The notes under the pieces are model-generated. The model ran no database searches and was not told the origin of the DNA. It saw only the letters and a list, made by a program, of their open reading frames with translations. Made by a program: the position numbers and the translations under genes. 18,443 nucleotides of DNA from Naegleria gruberi (taxonomy: Eukaryota): NCBI GenBank assembly GCA_000004985.1, contig GG738963.1; one strand, given 5' to 3'. Positions within the stretch are counted from its first letter, which is position 1. Every line of letters begins with the position of its first letter. Of this stretch, positions 3,196-14,119 are shown piece after piece.

Positions 3196-3405
3196 ATTTA
3201 TATCCATTATGAAAATCAAAAAGAAAAACAGCCACAAGAAAACAACTTGACTGAGAAATCATTGTATGGTGCTATATTTTCAGTACTTGAATCANAGCAT
3301 CAAATGGACCTGTTCAAAGCATATTGTAAAGCAGAATTTTCTTTGGAGAATTTGTACTTGTTCTTAAATATCTACCATTTGAAAAAACGAAACAAGTGGC
3401 TGTTA
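3196..3405 (+). CDS. Regulator of G-protein signalling (RGS-box) protein, partial exon truncated by the N-run. 5' boundary and phase uncertain.
   Basis: The translation SLYGAIFSVLESxHQMDLFKAYCKAEFSLENLYLFLNIYHLKK matches the start of the RGS box (F..FL..EFSEENL.FW core). The ORF-track N-terminus before ~3150 (MRFQMSSNVIFIYFNFSLVYPILF...) is hydrophobic junk from a T-rich polypyrimidine tract ending in AG acceptor candidates (3146-3151 tataag, 3190-3195 aataaag). The true exon most likely begins at one of these. The ATG at 3209 is out of frame. The exon runs into the gap at 3406. Confidence 0.5.
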
Positions 3406-6400
3406 NNNNNNNNNNNNNNNNNNNNNNNNNNNNNNNNNNNNNNNNNNNNNNNNNNNNNNNNNNNNNNNNNNNNNNNNNNNNNNNNNNNNNNNNNNNNNNN
3501 NNNNNNNNNNNNNNNNNNNNNNNNNNNNNNNNNNNNNNNNNNNNNNNNNNNNNNNNNNNNNNNNNNNNNNNNNNNNNNNNNNNNNNNNNNNNNNNNNNNN
3601 NNNNNNNNNNNNNNNNNNNNNNNNNNNNNNNNNNNNNNNNNNNNNNNNNNNNNNNNNNNNNNNNNNNNNNNNNNNNNNNNNNNNNNNNNNNNNNNNNNNN
3701 NNNNNNNNNNNNNNNNNNNNNNNNNNNNNNNNNNNNNNNNNNNNNNNNNNNNNNNNNNNNNNNNNNNNNNNNNNNNNNNNNNNNNNNNNNNNNNNNNNNN
3801 NNNNNNNNNNNNNNNNNNNNNNNNNNNNNNNNNNNNNNNNNNNNNNNNNNNNNNNNNNNNNNNNNNNNNNNNNNNNNNNNNNNNNNNNNNNNNNNNNNNN
3901 NNNNNNNNNNNNNNNNNNNNNNNNNNNNNNNNNNNNNNNNNNNNNNNNNNNNNNNNNNNNNNNNNNNNNNNNNNNNNNNNNNNNNNNNNNNNNNNNNNNN
4001 NNNNNNNNNNNNNNNNNNNNNNNNNNNNNNNNNNNNNNNNNNNNNNNNNNNNNNNNNNNNNNNNNNNNNNNNNNNNNNNNNNNNNNNNNNNNNNNNNNNN
4101 NNNNNNNNNNNNNNNNNNNNNNNNNNNNNNNNNNNNNNNNNNNNNNNNNNNNNNNNNNNNNNNNNNNNNNNNNNNNNNNNNNNNNNNNNNNNNNNNNNNN
4201 NNNNNNNNNNNNNNNNNNNNNNNNNNNNNNNNNNNNNNNNNNNNNNNNNNNNNNNNNNNNNNNNNNNNNNNNNNNNNNNNNNNNNNNNNNNNNNNNNNNN
4301 NNNNNNNNNNNNNNNNNNNNNNNNNNNNNNNNNNNNNNNNNNNNNNNNNNNNNNNNNNNNNNNNNNNNNNNNNNNNNNNNNNNNNNNNNNNNNNNNNNNN
4401 NNNNNNNNNNNNNNNNNNNNNNNNNNNNNNNNNNNNNNNNNNNNNNNNNNNNNNNNNNNNNNNNNNNNNNNNNNNNNNNNNNNNNNNNNNNNNNNNNNNN
4501 NNNNNNNNNNNNNNNNNNNNNNNNNNNNNNNNNNNNNNNNNNNNNNNNNNNNNNNNNNNNNNNNNNNNNNNNNNNNNNNNNNNNNNNNNNNNNNNNNNNN
4601 NNNNNNNNNNNNNNNNNNNNNNNNNNNNNNNNNNNNNNNNNNNNNNNNNNNNNNNNNNNNNNNNNNNNNNNNNNNNNNNNNNNNNNNNNNNNNNNNNNNN
4701 NNNNNNNNNNNNNNNNNNNNNNNNNNNNNNNNNNNNNNNNNNNNNNNNNNNNNNNNNNNNNNNNNNNNNNNNNNNNNNNNNNNNNNNNNNNNNNNNNNNN
4801 NNNNNNNNNNNNNNNNNNNNNNNNNNNNNNNNNNNNNNNNNNNNNNNNNNNNNNNNNNNNNNNNNNNNNNNNNNNNNNNNNNNNNNNNNNNNNNNNNNNN
4901 NNNNNNNNNNNNNNNNNNNNNNNNNNNNNNNNNNNNNNNNNNNNNNNNNNNNNNNNNNNNNNNNNNNNNNNNNNNNNNNNNNNNNNNNNNNNNNNNNNNN
5001 NNNNNNNNNNNNNNNNNNNNNNNNNNNNNNNNNNNNNNNNNNNNNNNNNNNNNNNNNNNNNNNNNNNNNNNNNNNNNNNNNNNNNNNNNNNNNNNNNNNN
5101 NNNNNNNNNNNNNNNNNNNNNNNNNNNNNNNNNNNNNNNNNNNNNNNNNNNNNNNNNNNNNNNNNNNNNNNNNNNNNNNNNNNNNNNNNNNNNNNNNNNN
5201 NNNNNNNNNNNNNNNNNNNNNNNNNNNNNNNNNNNNNNNNNNNNNNNNNNNNNNNNNNNNNNNNNNNNNNNNNNNNNNNNNNNNNNNNNNNNNNNNNNNN
5301 NNNNNNNNNNNNNNNNNNNNNNNNNNNNNNNNNNNNNNNNNNNNNNNNNNNNNNNNNNNNNNNNNNNNNNNNNNNNNNNNNNNNNNNNNNNNNNNNNNNN
5401 NNNNNNNNNNNNNNNNNNNNNNNNNNNNNNNNNNNNNNNNNNNNNNNNNNNNNNNNNNNNNNNNNNNNNNNNNNNNNNNNNNNNNNNNNNNNNNNNNNNN
5501 NNNNNNNNNNNNNNNNNNNNNNNNNNNNNNNNNNNNNNNNNNNNNNNNNNNNNNNNNNNNNNNNNNNNNNNNNNNNNNNNNNNNNNNNNNNNNNNNNNNN
5601 NNNNNNNNNNNNNNNNNNNNNNNNNNNNNNNNNNNNNNNNNNNNNNNNNNNNNNNNNNNNNNNNNNNNNNNNNNNNNNNNNNNNNNNNNNNNNNNNNNNN
5701 NNNNNNNNNNNNNNNNNNNNNNNNNNNNNNNNNNNNNNNNNNNNNNNNNNNNNNNNNNNNNNNNNNNNNNNNNNNNNNNNNNNNNNNNNNNNNNNNNNNN
5801 NNNNNNNNNNNNNNNNNNNNNNNNNNNNNNNNNNNNNNNNNNNNNNNNNNNNNNNNNNNNNNNNNNNNNNNNNNNNNNNNNNNNNNNNNNNNNNNNNNNN
5901 NNNNNNNNNNNNNNNNNNNNNNNNNNNNNNNNNNNNNNNNNNNNNNNNNNNNNNNNNNNNNNNNNNNNNNNNNNNNNNNNNNNNNNNNNNNNNNNNNNNN
6001 NNNNNNNNNNNNNNNNNNNNNNNNNNNNNNNNNNNNNNNNNNNNNNNNNNNNNNNNNNNNNNNNNNNNNNNNNNNNNNNNNNNNNNNNNNNNNNNNNNNN
6101 NNNNNNNNNNNNNNNNNNNNNNNNNNNNNNNNNNNNNNNNNNNNNNNNNNNNNNNNNNNNNNNNNNNNNNNNNNNNNNNNNNNNNNNNNNNNNNNNNNNN
6201 NNNNNNNNNNNNNNNNNNNNNNNNNNNNNNNNNNNNNNNNNNNNNNNNNNNNNNNNNNNNNNNNNNNNNNNNNNNNNNNNNNNNNNNNNNNNNNNNNNNN
6301 NNNNNNNNNNNNNNNNNNNNNNNNNNNNNNNNNNNNNNNNNNNNNNNNNNNNNNNNNNNNNNNNNNNNNNNNNNNNNNNNNNNNNNNNNNNNNNNNNNNN

Positions 6401-6494
6401 NNNNNNNNNNNNNNNNNNNNNNNNNNNNNNNNNNNNNNNNNNNNNNNNNNNNNNNNNNNNNNNNNNNNNNNNNNNNNNNNNNNNNNNNNNNNNN
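3406..6494. other. N-run (3089 nt): assembly gap or masked sequence.
   Basis: Uninterrupted run of n. The non-round length suggests an estimated scaffold gap or deliberate masking. An isolated n at 3295 lies 110 nt upstream, consistent with low-quality contig ends. Confidence 0.95.
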
Positions 6495-7255: not shown

Positions 7256-7403
7256 ATGTCCAACACCATTACCACTCAAACTCTTATTTATTCCTCCTAT
7301 CCGGAAGGACTCGTCAAGGAATCTGATTTTACCTACAATGCAGCACTTGAAATTGATTCCACCTTGCAAGCAGATGAAATTCTTGTTGAATTGTTGCATT
7401 TGA
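7256..7403 (+). CDS. PTGR1-like: Prostaglandin reductase 1 / LTB4 12-hydroxydehydrogenase / zeta-crystallin family NADP-dependent alkenal-enone reductase, exon 1 (ends in phase 1).
   Basis: ATG in an A-rich context (caaaaattcaaaacATG). The translation MSNTITTQTLIYSSYPEGLVKESDFTYNAALEIDSTLQADEILVELLHL aligns to the PTGR1 N-terminus (...[36 protein letters not shown]). A GTAAGT donor lies at 7404. Confidence 0.8.
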
Positions 7404-7496
7404 GTAAGTTGTTGCAATCATGACCATCAATTGACCATCATCATTAACTTCAACTGTTTTTATTCATCAACATATTCTTTATAATAATTGCAATAG
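7404..7496 (+). other. Spliceosomal intron (93 nt, phase 1) of the PTGR1-like gene.
   Basis: It starts with GTAAGT and ends with aataattgcaatAG. Splicing joins a(7403) to gt(7497-7498) to make Ser. This restores the conserved family motif HLS-VDPYMR in frame with the long downstream ORF. Confidence 0.8.
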
Positions 7497-8404
7497 GTGT
7501 TGATCCATACATGAGAGGAAGAATGTCAAAGAATGTTCCAAAAGGATATTTCCCAGCTTTCGAAATTGGTAAACCAATCAATGGTGGAGGTGTTGCCAAA
7601 GTATTGAAATCCAATCATGAAAACTTCAAGGAAGGTGATGTCTTGTTGGGTTATTTCGATTGGCAAAAGATTCAGAAGGTCAAGATTTCTGGAGAAGCCT
7701 TCTTAAAGAACTATGTCAAGATAGATGCTAGTATTCCACTTCCATTGTCTTATTATCTTGGTGTTTTGGGAATGCCTGGAATGACTGCTTATTTTGGATT
7801 CTTGGATATTTGTCAACCAAAGGAAGGTGAAGTTGTAGTTGTTTCAGCTGCTTCTGGAGCTGTTGGTTCACTTGTTGGTCAACTTGCCAAGATTAAGGGA
7901 TGCAAGGTTATTGGTATTTCTGGATCCACTGAAAATGTTCAACATCTCAAGGATTTAGGTTTCGACGAAATTATCAATTATAAGGATTTCAATAACGATA
8001 CAAATGCCTTAAAGGAAGCTATTGAAAAGGCAGCTCTTCCAAAGACTGGAGTTGATTGCTACTTTGATAATGTTGGTGGATTTGTCTTGGATGCAGTAAC
8101 CTTGTCCATGAACAGATACGGAAGAATTTCTTGTTGTGGATCAATTAGTGAATACAATGGACAAAAGGATTTGGGACCAAGATTAAACTCTGTCTACGTA
8201 GTCAGAGAATTAAAGATTCAAGGTTTCATTGTTGGATCCTTCTACCATAGATTGGATGAAGGAGTCAAAGCCATGACGAAATGGGTCCTTGAAGGAAAGT
8301 TGAAAGTTTTGGAGAGTAAGGTAGCAGGACTGGAAAATATTCCAAAAGCTTTGATCAAACTCTTTACAGGAGATAAGGTCGGAAAGATGATCATTGATGT
8401 TTAA
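7497..8404 (+). CDS. PTGR1-like: PTGR1-like reductase, exon 2 to TAA stop. Whole protein about 351 aa.
   Basis: Family landmarks: VDPYMRGRM, GMPGMTAYFGFLDICQPKEGEVVVVSAASGAVGSLVGQLAKIKGCKVIGISGS (Rossmann-type NADP site, compare human [23 protein letters not shown]), CYFDNVGG, and a C-terminus KWVLEGKL...GKMIIDV that parallels human KWVLEGKIQY...GKTIVKA. Stop TAA at 8402-8404. Confidence 0.88.
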
Positions 8405-8583
8405 GCAGTTTATTAATTGTAGAGTAGTCCTATGTGTGTAAATATTTGAGAAATATAAAGTCATTCTTATTATTTGAAAATCAACTTTCCTATTTCGAGA
8501 TACAAGATCAATTCTATCCTGAGTCCTTAGAATGAGAATGTCATCAAGTCAAATGTCAAAATTGCAAACAAATCAAAGAAAAA

Positions 8584-8736
8584 ATGGTCTTTACATCTAC
8601 CTTTCCACCCTGCGAGTTGATAGAAAATACACCAATCTCTCACATCATTATTGAAAAATGTAAAGAACATGGTGATCGTATTGCTCTCGTTGATGGATCA
8701 GTATCGGAAGATAACAAGAATCAATATTCCACATTA
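8584..8736 (+). CDS. 4CL-like: 4-coumarate-CoA ligase-like / firefly-luciferase-family (ANL) acyl-CoA synthetase, N-terminal segment in frame 1, before a +1 frameshift.
   Basis: MVFTSTFPPCELIENTPISHIIIEKCKEHGDRIALVDGSVSEDNKNQYS aligns to 4CL N-termini ([45 protein letters not shown]). The frame then hits TAG at 8764 while the homologous sequence continues in the +1 frame from 8738. Confidence 0.75.
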
Positions 8737-8737
8737 A

Positions 8738-9620
8738 CATTCTCAACTTGCTTCCCTGATCATTAGAGTGGGAAATAATCTTCATGATGAATACCATTTG
8801 AAAAAGAATGACATGATTGCTGTCATGTTACCAAATCTTCCACTTTTCCCTGTTCTCTTCCACGGAATTAGTTATGTCGGAGGAATTGTGACAACCTTGA
8901 ATCCATTGTACAGTTATGAAGAGATTCAAAGTCAGTTGGCTGATAGTGGGGCCATCATGATGATCACTTCAAAGGATTTTCTTGAAAAGGCCCAAAAAAG
9001 CATTGAAAATACGAAAGTTAAACAATTATTTGTATTGGACTTGAAGGATGAGATTGTGGAAAATGTGTTAAAAGTGGAAGAAACATTATTGAAAGAATCT
9101 GTCAGAACAGAAATGATCAATACTGTTTCATTCAATACAAAGGAAGATGTTTTTGCAGTTCCATACAGTTCTGGAACTGTTGGCTTATGCAAGGGAGTTT
9201 GTTTGACTCATTTCAATACACTCAGTAATATTTTACAATTCAGATGTTCAGTAGAGAAGATTTCCTCTGGGGATTGTACTATTGCTGTGTTGCCATTCTT
9301 TCATATTTATGGATTGACTCTTATTTGCAATGCAGCTCTCTATGAGGGAGCCAAGGTTGTAACAATGGCAAGATTTGATTTGGAAACGTTTTTGAGGAAT
9401 ATTCAAACTCATCAAGTGACTAGAATTCACCTTGTTCCACCAATAATGATTGCTCTCGCCAAGCACCCATTGATTGAAAAGTATAATCTCACCTCAATCA
9501 AGACACTCGTGTCTGCAGCTGCTCCATTATCTGCAGAGGTTGCAAGTATGGTCAGTAAGAGATTGAATGTTATTGTAAAACAGGGATATGGACTTACTGA
9601 AACAGGACCAGTTTGTTGTG
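8738..9620 (+). CDS. 4CL-like: 4CL-like acyl-CoA synthetase, central segment (frame +1 relative to the N-terminal segment) up to the splice donor.
   Basis: (H)SQLASLIIRVGNNLHDEYHLKKNDMIAVMLPNLPLFPVLFHGISYVGGIVTTLNPLYSYEEI matches 4CL [32 protein letters not shown]...ANP. The AMP-binding P-loop is VPYSSGTVGLCKGV (9158-9196). Other landmarks are LPFFHIYGL, VPPIMIALAKHP and GYGLTETGPV. The exon ends at g9620 (phase 1) before the GTAGGT donor. Confidence 0.85.
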
Positions 9621-9658
9621 GTAGGTTTTTATTGAGCTTGTGATTACAATTAATTCAG
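9621..9658 (+). other. Spliceosomal intron (38 nt, phase 1) in the 4CL-like gene.
   Basis: GTAGGTTTTTATTGAGCTTGTGATTACAATTAATTCAG. Removing it joins g(9620)+ta(9659-9660) to give Val. It links ...TETGPVCC to VCPDDNVKVGSVGLLLP, which aligns with luciferase ITPEGDDKPGAVGKVVP. Without it the frame ends at TGA 9641-9643. No other GT..AG pair restores the frame. Confidence 0.75.
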
Positions 9659-10221
9659 TATGTCCTGATGATAATGTAAAGGTTGGATCTGTTGGATTGT
9701 TACTTCCACTCACCGATTTGAAAATACTCGATTTGGAAACAGAAGAAGAAATTACACAAGTTGGAAAACAAGGTGAATTATGTTTTAGTGGACCACAAAT
9801 GATGAAAGGGTATTTAAATAATGAGGAAGCAACAAAATATACTTTAAGAAATGGCTTTATTCATACAGGAGATGTGGGATATATTGATAGTGATGGATTC
9901 TTATACATTGTGGATAGAGTTAAGGAATTGATCAAATATAATGGATATCAAGTACCTCCTGCTGAACTAGAAGGAATCCTACTGAAACATCCTAAAATTC
10001 TGGATGCTGCTGTAATTGGTATACAGGACGAAACTGTGGGTGAATTACCAAAGGCATTTGTAGTTATGAGACCAAATGAAACTCTCTCAGAGGATGAGGT
10101 CATGAATTTCGTGGCAGAGCATGTCTCTCCACAAAGAAGAGTAAGGTTGGTTGAATTCGTAAAAGAAATTCCAAAATCTTCGAGTGGCAAAATATTGAGA
10201 AGATTATTGAGACAACGTTAG
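9659..10221 (+). CDS. 4CL-like: 4CL-like acyl-CoA synthetase, C-terminal exon to TAG stop. Reconstructed protein about 530 aa.
   Basis: GELCFSGPQMMKGYLNNEEAT, HTGDVGYIDSDGFLYIVDRVKELIKYNGYQVPPAELEGILLKHP and SSGKILRRLLRQR match the conserved ANL C-terminal domain ([53 protein letters not shown]). Stop TAG at 10219-10221. Confidence 0.88.
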
Positions 10222-10759: not shown

Positions 10760-13700
10760 NNNNNNNNNNNNNNNNNNNNNNNNNNNNNNNNNNNNNNNNN
10801 NNNNNNNNNNNNNNNNNNNNNNNNNNNNNNNNNNNNNNNNNNNNNNNNNNNNNNNNNNNNNNNNNNNNNNNNNNNNNNNNNNNNNNNNNNNNNNNNNNNN
10901 NNNNNNNNNNNNNNNNNNNNNNNNNNNNNNNNNNNNNNNNNNNNNNNNNNNNNNNNNNNNNNNNNNNNNNNNNNNNNNNNNNNNNNNNNNNNNNNNNNNN
11001 NNNNNNNNNNNNNNNNNNNNNNNNNNNNNNNNNNNNNNNNNNNNNNNNNNNNNNNNNNNNNNNNNNNNNNNNNNNNNNNNNNNNNNNNNNNNNNNNNNNN
11101 NNNNNNNNNNNNNNNNNNNNNNNNNNNNNNNNNNNNNNNNNNNNNNNNNNNNNNNNNNNNNNNNNNNNNNNNNNNNNNNNNNNNNNNNNNNNNNNNNNNN
11201 NNNNNNNNNNNNNNNNNNNNNNNNNNNNNNNNNNNNNNNNNNNNNNNNNNNNNNNNNNNNNNNNNNNNNNNNNNNNNNNNNNNNNNNNNNNNNNNNNNNN
11301 NNNNNNNNNNNNNNNNNNNNNNNNNNNNNNNNNNNNNNNNNNNNNNNNNNNNNNNNNNNNNNNNNNNNNNNNNNNNNNNNNNNNNNNNNNNNNNNNNNNN
11401 NNNNNNNNNNNNNNNNNNNNNNNNNNNNNNNNNNNNNNNNNNNNNNNNNNNNNNNNNNNNNNNNNNNNNNNNNNNNNNNNNNNNNNNNNNNNNNNNNNNN
11501 NNNNNNNNNNNNNNNNNNNNNNNNNNNNNNNNNNNNNNNNNNNNNNNNNNNNNNNNNNNNNNNNNNNNNNNNNNNNNNNNNNNNNNNNNNNNNNNNNNNN
11601 NNNNNNNNNNNNNNNNNNNNNNNNNNNNNNNNNNNNNNNNNNNNNNNNNNNNNNNNNNNNNNNNNNNNNNNNNNNNNNNNNNNNNNNNNNNNNNNNNNNN
11701 NNNNNNNNNNNNNNNNNNNNNNNNNNNNNNNNNNNNNNNNNNNNNNNNNNNNNNNNNNNNNNNNNNNNNNNNNNNNNNNNNNNNNNNNNNNNNNNNNNNN
11801 NNNNNNNNNNNNNNNNNNNNNNNNNNNNNNNNNNNNNNNNNNNNNNNNNNNNNNNNNNNNNNNNNNNNNNNNNNNNNNNNNNNNNNNNNNNNNNNNNNNN
11901 NNNNNNNNNNNNNNNNNNNNNNNNNNNNNNNNNNNNNNNNNNNNNNNNNNNNNNNNNNNNNNNNNNNNNNNNNNNNNNNNNNNNNNNNNNNNNNNNNNNN
12001 NNNNNNNNNNNNNNNNNNNNNNNNNNNNNNNNNNNNNNNNNNNNNNNNNNNNNNNNNNNNNNNNNNNNNNNNNNNNNNNNNNNNNNNNNNNNNNNNNNNN
12101 NNNNNNNNNNNNNNNNNNNNNNNNNNNNNNNNNNNNNNNNNNNNNNNNNNNNNNNNNNNNNNNNNNNNNNNNNNNNNNNNNNNNNNNNNNNNNNNNNNNN
12201 NNNNNNNNNNNNNNNNNNNNNNNNNNNNNNNNNNNNNNNNNNNNNNNNNNNNNNNNNNNNNNNNNNNNNNNNNNNNNNNNNNNNNNNNNNNNNNNNNNNN
12301 NNNNNNNNNNNNNNNNNNNNNNNNNNNNNNNNNNNNNNNNNNNNNNNNNNNNNNNNNNNNNNNNNNNNNNNNNNNNNNNNNNNNNNNNNNNNNNNNNNNN
12401 NNNNNNNNNNNNNNNNNNNNNNNNNNNNNNNNNNNNNNNNNNNNNNNNNNNNNNNNNNNNNNNNNNNNNNNNNNNNNNNNNNNNNNNNNNNNNNNNNNNN
12501 NNNNNNNNNNNNNNNNNNNNNNNNNNNNNNNNNNNNNNNNNNNNNNNNNNNNNNNNNNNNNNNNNNNNNNNNNNNNNNNNNNNNNNNNNNNNNNNNNNNN
12601 NNNNNNNNNNNNNNNNNNNNNNNNNNNNNNNNNNNNNNNNNNNNNNNNNNNNNNNNNNNNNNNNNNNNNNNNNNNNNNNNNNNNNNNNNNNNNNNNNNNN
12701 NNNNNNNNNNNNNNNNNNNNNNNNNNNNNNNNNNNNNNNNNNNNNNNNNNNNNNNNNNNNNNNNNNNNNNNNNNNNNNNNNNNNNNNNNNNNNNNNNNNN
12801 NNNNNNNNNNNNNNNNNNNNNNNNNNNNNNNNNNNNNNNNNNNNNNNNNNNNNNNNNNNNNNNNNNNNNNNNNNNNNNNNNNNNNNNNNNNNNNNNNNNN
12901 NNNNNNNNNNNNNNNNNNNNNNNNNNNNNNNNNNNNNNNNNNNNNNNNNNNNNNNNNNNNNNNNNNNNNNNNNNNNNNNNNNNNNNNNNNNNNNNNNNNN
13001 NNNNNNNNNNNNNNNNNNNNNNNNNNNNNNNNNNNNNNNNNNNNNNNNNNNNNNNNNNNNNNNNNNNNNNNNNNNNNNNNNNNNNNNNNNNNNNNNNNNN
13101 NNNNNNNNNNNNNNNNNNNNNNNNNNNNNNNNNNNNNNNNNNNNNNNNNNNNNNNNNNNNNNNNNNNNNNNNNNNNNNNNNNNNNNNNNNNNNNNNNNNN
13201 NNNNNNNNNNNNNNNNNNNNNNNNNNNNNNNNNNNNNNNNNNNNNNNNNNNNNNNNNNNNNNNNNNNNNNNNNNNNNNNNNNNNNNNNNNNNNNNNNNNN
13301 NNNNNNNNNNNNNNNNNNNNNNNNNNNNNNNNNNNNNNNNNNNNNNNNNNNNNNNNNNNNNNNNNNNNNNNNNNNNNNNNNNNNNNNNNNNNNNNNNNNN
13401 NNNNNNNNNNNNNNNNNNNNNNNNNNNNNNNNNNNNNNNNNNNNNNNNNNNNNNNNNNNNNNNNNNNNNNNNNNNNNNNNNNNNNNNNNNNNNNNNNNNN
13501 NNNNNNNNNNNNNNNNNNNNNNNNNNNNNNNNNNNNNNNNNNNNNNNNNNNNNNNNNNNNNNNNNNNNNNNNNNNNNNNNNNNNNNNNNNNNNNNNNNNN
13601 NNNNNNNNNNNNNNNNNNNNNNNNNNNNNNNNNNNNNNNNNNNNNNNNNNNNNNNNNNNNNNNNNNNNNNNNNNNNNNNNNNNNNNNNNNNNNNNNNNNN

Positions 13701-14065
13701 NNNNNNNNNNNNNNNNNNNNNNNNNNNNNNNNNNNNNNNNNNNNNNNNNNNNNNNNNNNNNNNNNNNNNNNNNNNNNNNNNNNNNNNNNNNNNNNNNNNN
13801 NNNNNNNNNNNNNNNNNNNNNNNNNNNNNNNNNNNNNNNNNNNNNNNNNNNNNNNNNNNNNNNNNNNNNNNNNNNNNNNNNNNNNNNNNNNNNNNNNNNN
13901 NNNNNNNNNNNNNNNNNNNNNNNNNNNNNNNNNNNNNNNNNNNNNNNNNNNNNNNNNNNNNNNNNNNNNNNNNNNNNNNNNNNNNNNNNNNNNNNNNNNN
14001 NNNNNNNNNNNNNNNNNNNNNNNNNNNNNNNNNNNNNNNNNNNNNNNNNNNNNNNNNNNNNNNNN
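10760..14065. other. N-run (3306 nt): assembly gap or masked sequence.
   Basis: Uninterrupted n. An isolated n at 14110 lies 45 nt past its right edge. Confidence 0.95.
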
Positions 14066-14119
14066 CCGTTCTATACATCACGTATGTCATACAGAATGAG
14101 TTTCAATATNTAATATTGT

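Follow-up and report, generated by a model that had tools for sequence, protein, structure and literature searches.

The locus analyzed here raises the question of why the gene of a conserved acyl-CoA synthetase is divided between two reading frames. The window, that is, the whole stretch of DNA under study (18,443 nt), is a complete draft scaffold of Naegleria gruberi NEG-M, approximately 35% of which consists of N. Direct translation of frame 1 from the ATG at 8584 yielded a product of 60 amino acids ending in ...NQYSTLTFSTCFPDH at a stop codon, while frame 2 was found open from 8738, where it reads HSQLASLIIRVGNNLHDEYHLKKNDMIAV..., in agreement with the positions given in the preliminary description of this DNA (TAG at 8764; frame 2 open from 8738). 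The features that define the break are the following:

8584..8743, + strand: start of the acyl-CoA synthetase coding sequence, in frame 1 (M1-F53, then the first base of codon 54).
8735..8737, + strand: TAA in frame 2, the 5' limit of the zone in which the frame switch may lie.
8744..9620, + strand: frame-2 portion of the coding sequence, extending from Q55 to the first base of an intron-split codon.
8764..8766, + strand: premature TAG in frame 1, reached after six out-of-frame codons (TCFPDH, then stop).

The deposited sequence does contain the frame break. Read as deposited, translation from ATG 8584 would quit the true frame after F53 and end at TAG 8764, and the remaining 479 codons would sit in the +1 frame.

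The repaired protein, in which the two parts are rejoined as described below, matched the AMP-binding domain PF00501 from residue 24 (E = 1.8e-81; 274.4 bits, cut-off 29.9) and the AMP-binding_C domain PF13193 (65.4 bits, cut-off 24.5), aligned over residues 2-532 with 4-coumarate-CoA ligase structures (E = 7e-105), and matched Naegleria homologs from MVF... onward. Homology to the ANL superfamily, said earlier to be continuous across the switch from frame 1 to frame 2, is indeed unbroken, with Pfam, the 4CL structures and the Naegleria homologs all matching on both sides. Of the core motifs, GYGLTE, HTGDVGY, DRVKELIKYNGYQV and SSSGKILRR are present. On these grounds the gene is predicted to encode a 4CL-like acyl-CoA synthetase of the ANL superfamily; the scores of luciferase-like and fatty-acyl-CoA synthetases come close behind that of 4CL2. 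The product shares with Nicotiana 4CL2 (PDB 5U95/5BSM) and with 4CL-like synthetases the same AMP-binding and AMP-binding_C domains, a full-length alignment, GYGLTE, TGD, the hinge Asp and the Lys of the C-terminal SGK motif, and it departs from these enzymes in its P-loop (window 9166-9195, residues 196-205), which reads SSGTVGLCKG instead of SSGTTGLPKG (consensus [ST]SG[ST][TS]GxPKG). The Val in this loop occurs in 0 of 117 homologs, the second Thr of the motif being Thr in 116 of them and Ser in one, and its codons are the same in the environmental contig introduced below. A Gly-to-Asn change at residue 76 is similarly rare (Gly in 116 homologs, Lys in one). Apart from the single lesion, the rest of the gene is as intact as had been proposed, its catalytic motifs (GYGLTE, TGD, hinge, SGK) being kept. 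A paralog in the N. gruberi genome, P0004, is 59% identical to the repaired protein by pairwise alignment, and the window synthetase branches outside the group formed by P0002, P0003 and P0004. The Willaertia homolog (49-51% identity) is about as close as the best matches outside Heterolobosea, which are bacterial 4CL-family proteins from Chloroflexi, Actinomycetota and Anaerolineae (48-49% identity). Synteny is not conserved in N. fowleri, where the gene upstream is Raptor.

The nature of the lesion was delineated from residue spacing. In all 117 homologs aligned, exactly 17 ungapped residues lie opposite LTFSQLASLIIRVGNNL, and the only join that reproduces this spacing is that of TLTFS from frame 1 to QLAS from frame 2. 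Frame 1 supplies T-L-T-F, with TTC at 8740-8742, and frame 2 supplies Q-L-A-S, with CAA at 8744-8746; since only T8743 stands between TTC and CAA where a whole codon is needed, two bases are missing. In line with this, the Naegleria and Willaertia homologs read (S/T)-L-(T/S)-(F/Y)-x-Q-(M/I/L)-A... at the junction, and insertion of CA after 8743 yielded a clean open reading frame of 533 amino acids. The deposited bases at 8740-8749 read TTCTCAACTT, without CA; the CA-bearing allele reads TTCTCACAACTT. The site may be described as follows:

8743..8744, + strand: lesion site, CA absent between T8743 and C8744, as indicated by blastn of environmental contig L001, by N. fowleri, by the 117 homologs and by repair of the open reading frame.

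The zone proposed earlier for the switch (8734-8743) was thus the right one, with the lesion now refined to its 3' edge at 8743/8744, and the N-terminal codons, with which homologs align, do belong to the protein but number 54 (M1-S54) rather than 51.

An independent view of the junction was obtained when the first 145 residues of the repaired protein were used as a query: this retrieved a protein, P0121, with 100% identity at 100% coverage. P0121 is encoded on L001, a metagenome contig of 1675 nt from ENA (ERZ929261 / ERR1078381 / PRJEB11402) that is approximately 98% identical to the window and aligns to positions 7931-9229 with 22 mismatches. Its residues 1-53 are 100% identical to the frame-1 part of the window gene, and its open reading frame crosses the junction without interruption (MVF...TLTFSQLAS...). 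Where L001 reads TTC TCA CAA CTT, the window reads TTC T--CAA CTT; blastn aligned ACATTCTCACAACTT of the contig with ACATTCT--CAACTT of the window or, in a longer view, ACATTCTCACAACTTGCT with ACATTCT--CAACTTGCT. In N. fowleri, the junction is CTC ACC TTC TCC CAA ATG and lies within exon 1, the first intron coming only after ...NNLVDLYQ. As both L001 and N. fowleri encode the junction in a single frame, the ancestral state was TTC TCN CAA. The deposited scaffold is without a CA in codons 54/55 of the synthetase, where the intact sequence is ACA TTC TCA CAA CTT GCT (T F S Q L A).

L001 itself derives from a different strain and not from a re-assembly of NEG-M, because the intergenic spacer, the oxidoreductase and the synthetase all differ between contig and window. 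The contig carries lesions of its own. At L001:1231 (equivalent to window 9156-9165), within the same synthetase gene, a 10-nt deletion (CAGTTCCATA) is flanked by CAGTTC direct repeats, and beyond the equivalent of window position 9229 the contig continues (L001:1295-1675) into unrelated sequence that has no match in the window and holds a convergent open reading frame for a small membrane-type protein. The contig may be an assembly chimera or a duplicate cut short, or that strain may truly have a rearrangement or a pseudogene here. A homolog search with the middle of the synthetase joined to the 3' open reading frame of L001 brought up no additional near-identical fragment and nothing by which to identify that frame, and scanning of JGI metagenome contigs, by exact DNA pattern or guided by protein, yielded no further copy of the junction. 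Exact-product look-ups of five open reading frames of the window and of the public protein P0001, described below, gave no match, and a literature search for PRJEB11402 found no mention of the project.

Comparison of the two strains also provided a measure of the constraint acting on the gene, for which the intact neighbor upstream served as context and control:

7256-7403 and 7497-8404, + strand: exons of an intact zinc-type/ADH_N_2 oxidoreductase, separated by a 93-nt GTAAGT..AG intron (7404-7496).

The 179-nt intergenic spacer differs between window and L001 by 8 substitutions and 4 indels. The 8 differences in the oxidoreductase are synonymous without exception, and those in the synthetase comprise 5 synonymous changes and 1 non-synonymous change (P = 0.002), giving 13 synonymous changes to 1 non-synonymous for both genes pooled (P = 1.5e-8), where the P values assume that about 21% of random changes are synonymous. 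Before the break, both synthetase differences are synonymous and hit the third codon position as read in frame 1; past it, third codon positions of frame 2 account for 3 synonymous changes, and a second position for the single non-synonymous one, V to A at 9102. At columns conserved in at least 95% of homologs, the window protein deviates in 11 of 133, compared to 10 for N. fowleri, 9 for Willaertia and 6 for P0004, and its identity to a bacterial outgroup (51%) is not below that of the paralogs (48-50%). Substitutions at 13:1, each in the expected frame, argue that the gene was constrained until very recently. Thus, purifying selection acted on the gene until very recently, any inactivation is very recent, and the first 54 codons are genuinely coding. 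An old, decayed pseudogene was rejected, given one lesion in 1.6 kb, a 5:1 excess of synonymous changes, and deviations at conserved columns like those of Naegleria homologs.

Further downstream, the coding sequence changes frame a second time (9620-9660, frame 2 to frame 1), in this case because of a spliceosomal GT..AG intron of 38 nt:

9621..9658, + strand: 38-nt GT..AG intron of the synthetase gene (GTAGGT...TTAATTCAG), boundaries checked.
9659..10221, + strand: last synthetase exon including the stop codon, encoding the AMP-binding_C domain and the SGKILRR lysine motif.

The public model of the gene reads ...GPVCCVCPDDNVK (GPVCC-V-CPDD) across this intron. The corresponding protein, P0001, is annotated as 'predicted protein [Naegleria gruberi]', has 456 amino acids, all of them identical to the window translation (100%), and starts at the internal Met of MIAVMLPN, encoded by ATG 8813 (model 8813-10221). 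Since P0001 begins past the break, the annotation pipeline sidestepped the frame break and truncated the protein. The real product is almost certainly a 533-residue 4CL-like acyl-CoA synthetase starting at ATG 8584.

Several explanations of the break fared poorly. The preliminary description had considered a single-base indel, and removal of any one base in 8737-8746 does reopen the frame; a single extra base in the deposited sequence would, however, leave the native protein one residue shorter here than its homologs, and it is highly improbable, given that no gap interrupts this 17-residue strand-helix segment in any of the 117 homologs and that L001 differs from the window by exactly two added bases, CA (TCACAA against TCAA), and not by the loss of one. 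That an unconventional or tiny intron should lie in the overlap, or that the first 54 codons should fall outside the gene as the public model implies, finds some encouragement in the very short 38-nt intron of the same gene and in the start of P0001 at Met 8813. The interval 8738-8766 nevertheless contains no GT, and its sole AG is at 8765-8766; at the junction, both L001 and N. fowleri run colinear with the window as exon sequence, and the 54 N-terminal codons have their homologs in every relative and, read in frame 1, change synonymously. We regard such an intron or exclusion of the 5' end as having next to no chance of being correct, and the earlier statement that no intron accounts for the switch stands. 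A longer candidate intron from GT 8701 to AG 8766 was discarded, as its 66 nt would leave the frame unchanged. Programmed recoding, whether by a -2 slip, a +1 slip, transcriptional slippage or insertional RNA editing, would be compatible with the intactness of the rest of the gene, and on U_UCU_CAA a P-site tRNA-Ser could in principle move from UCA (8743-8745) to UCU (8741-8743) with cognate re-pairing, thereby regenerating F-S-Q. Against this, the F-S-Q junction is encoded in one frame in both L001 and N. fowleri, such that the recoding site is not conserved, and the shift point UUC UCA ACU is without a known slippery heptamer, a rare-codon or stop context, or a homopolymer run. The downstream 120 nt folded no better than shuffled sequences (z = -0.83), revealing no stimulatory RNA structure, and a full-text literature search on Naegleria gruberi and frameshifting, judged mostly by title, gave none on programmed frameshifting among the titles listed, the N. 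gruberi frameshift papers looked into being concerned with assembly or transcript errors. The -2 slip is a by-product of the TCTCA context with nothing in its support. Recoding of any of these kinds is accordingly very unlikely, and a conserved programmed frameshift may be considered effectively excluded by the single-frame relatives; the low weight that it had been given at the outset was right, as L001 and N. fowleri need no shift. Programmed frameshifting is known as a +1 event in antizyme, prfB and Euplotes genes and as a -2 event in arterivirus nsp2TF. The present locus resembles these systems in formal outcome only, namely in two overlapping frames that each hold part of one protein; unlike them, it presents no conservation, no stop or rare-codon context, no slippery motif and no downstream structure. 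A Euplotes-like shift at the stop codon (CAT TAG A) was likewise dismissed: it would swap the conserved QLASLII for TCFPDH, and the genome is not nanochromosomal. That NEG-M DNA should truly be without CA and the full-length enzyme still be made, through a -2 slip of tRNA-Ser or a 2-nt repair of the transcript, strikes us as exceedingly far-fetched; if true, recoding would have arisen anew in a metabolic gene of a cellular organism, with NQYSTLTFSQLASLIIR as the trans-frame tryptic peptide.

The quality of the scaffold bears on what remains. The NEG-M genome was Sanger-sequenced (40.9 Mb, 35% GC; PMC9928731, Table 1). The scaffold is interrupted by two N gaps of approximately 3.1-3.3 kb each (3406-6494 and 10760-14065) and contains two isolated N calls, one at 3295 (111 nt ahead of the first gap) and one at 14110 (45 nt beyond the second). 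The position of these calls beside the gaps suggests that low-quality read ends were retained in the consensus, and the gaps, the isolated Ns and the Sanger origin are marks of low coverage. With respect to its other contents, the 4.4-kb contig at 14066-18443 (25-30% GC) has no stop-free stretch exceeding 93 codons in any frame and one small tandem repeat only, making it a long, non-coding-looking stretch that is unusual for a gene-dense genome. The segment 1424-3294 displays positive GC skew on the + strand and many short stop-free stretches without clear gene structure, and an RGS-like motif (DLFKAYCKAEFSLENL) is found at about 3300-3400, entering the first gap.

Two explanations thus carry most of the weight, all others together being improbable. 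The one towards which we lean, by a modest preference, is that the CA dropped out by error, in base calling or in the consensus, where coverage of the Sanger draft was poor. The gap-rich scaffold with its N calls, the presence of a single lesion and the strong signature of constraint speak for it. Under this error, the living amoeba would carry an intact gene for the 533-residue enzyme. The break itself is a plain, non-programmed indel for which no recoding signal, intron or editing need be invoked. The alternative is a real 2-bp deletion of CA in NEG-M, arisen very recently by slippage, possibly heterozygous in a polyploid or heterozygous genome or else acquired during decades of axenic culture, which would inactivate an allele partly redundant with P0004. 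We hold this to be a substantial possibility, although one that falls somewhat short of even. A 2-nt loss within a CACA micro-repeat is also just what replication slippage yields; the paralog P0004 resides in the same genome; L001 bears in the same gene its independent 10-nt deletion between CAGTTC repeats and a 3' end that is truncated and diverges after 9229; and the atypical P-loop SSGTVG, with its T-to-V change, is common to both strains. The lesions of L001, together with P0004, make a real loss-of-function allele plausible, and from the former the paralog could be dispensable in the N. gruberi complex. Weighing against a real deletion are the 5:1 (pooled, 13:1) excess of synonymous changes, the absence of a second lesion in 1.6 kb and the normal evolutionary rate, signs of constraint by which any inactivation must be extremely recent. 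Two independent and equally recent inactivations in two strains would moreover be a coincidence, and the scaffold shows signs of low quality. An error, already the preferred reading in the preliminary description, still leads as the more probable one, a real recent or heterozygous deletion in NEG-M being somewhat less probable.

Draft genomes of protists have shown frameshifts before, as artefacts or as strain polymorphisms, for example in the Ndc80 genes of Naegleria clarki and Creneidae, where read mapping resolved them (bioRxiv 10.64898/2026.08.18.745565). The same preprint cites deep RNA-seq of N. gruberi NEG-M (Kennard et al. 2025; about 829 million paired reads of 75 bp). As in those cases, a conserved gene is split here between two frames, the model is truncated or missing and the homologs are continuous; unlike in those cases, the correction comes from a near-identical environmental contig and from homolog spacing, and not from the strain's own reads. 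The frame break is biologically ordinary, a known kind of discrepancy with nothing mechanistically new. Its practical outcome is one of annotation, namely a corrected model of the gene encoding 533 amino acids, in place of a deposited model with which 77 N-terminal-domain residues go missing from comparative or metabolic analyses. Should the deletion prove real, the locus would be a further case of a paralogous metabolic gene that has only lately acquired a loss-of-function allele, in an amoeba strain long kept in culture.
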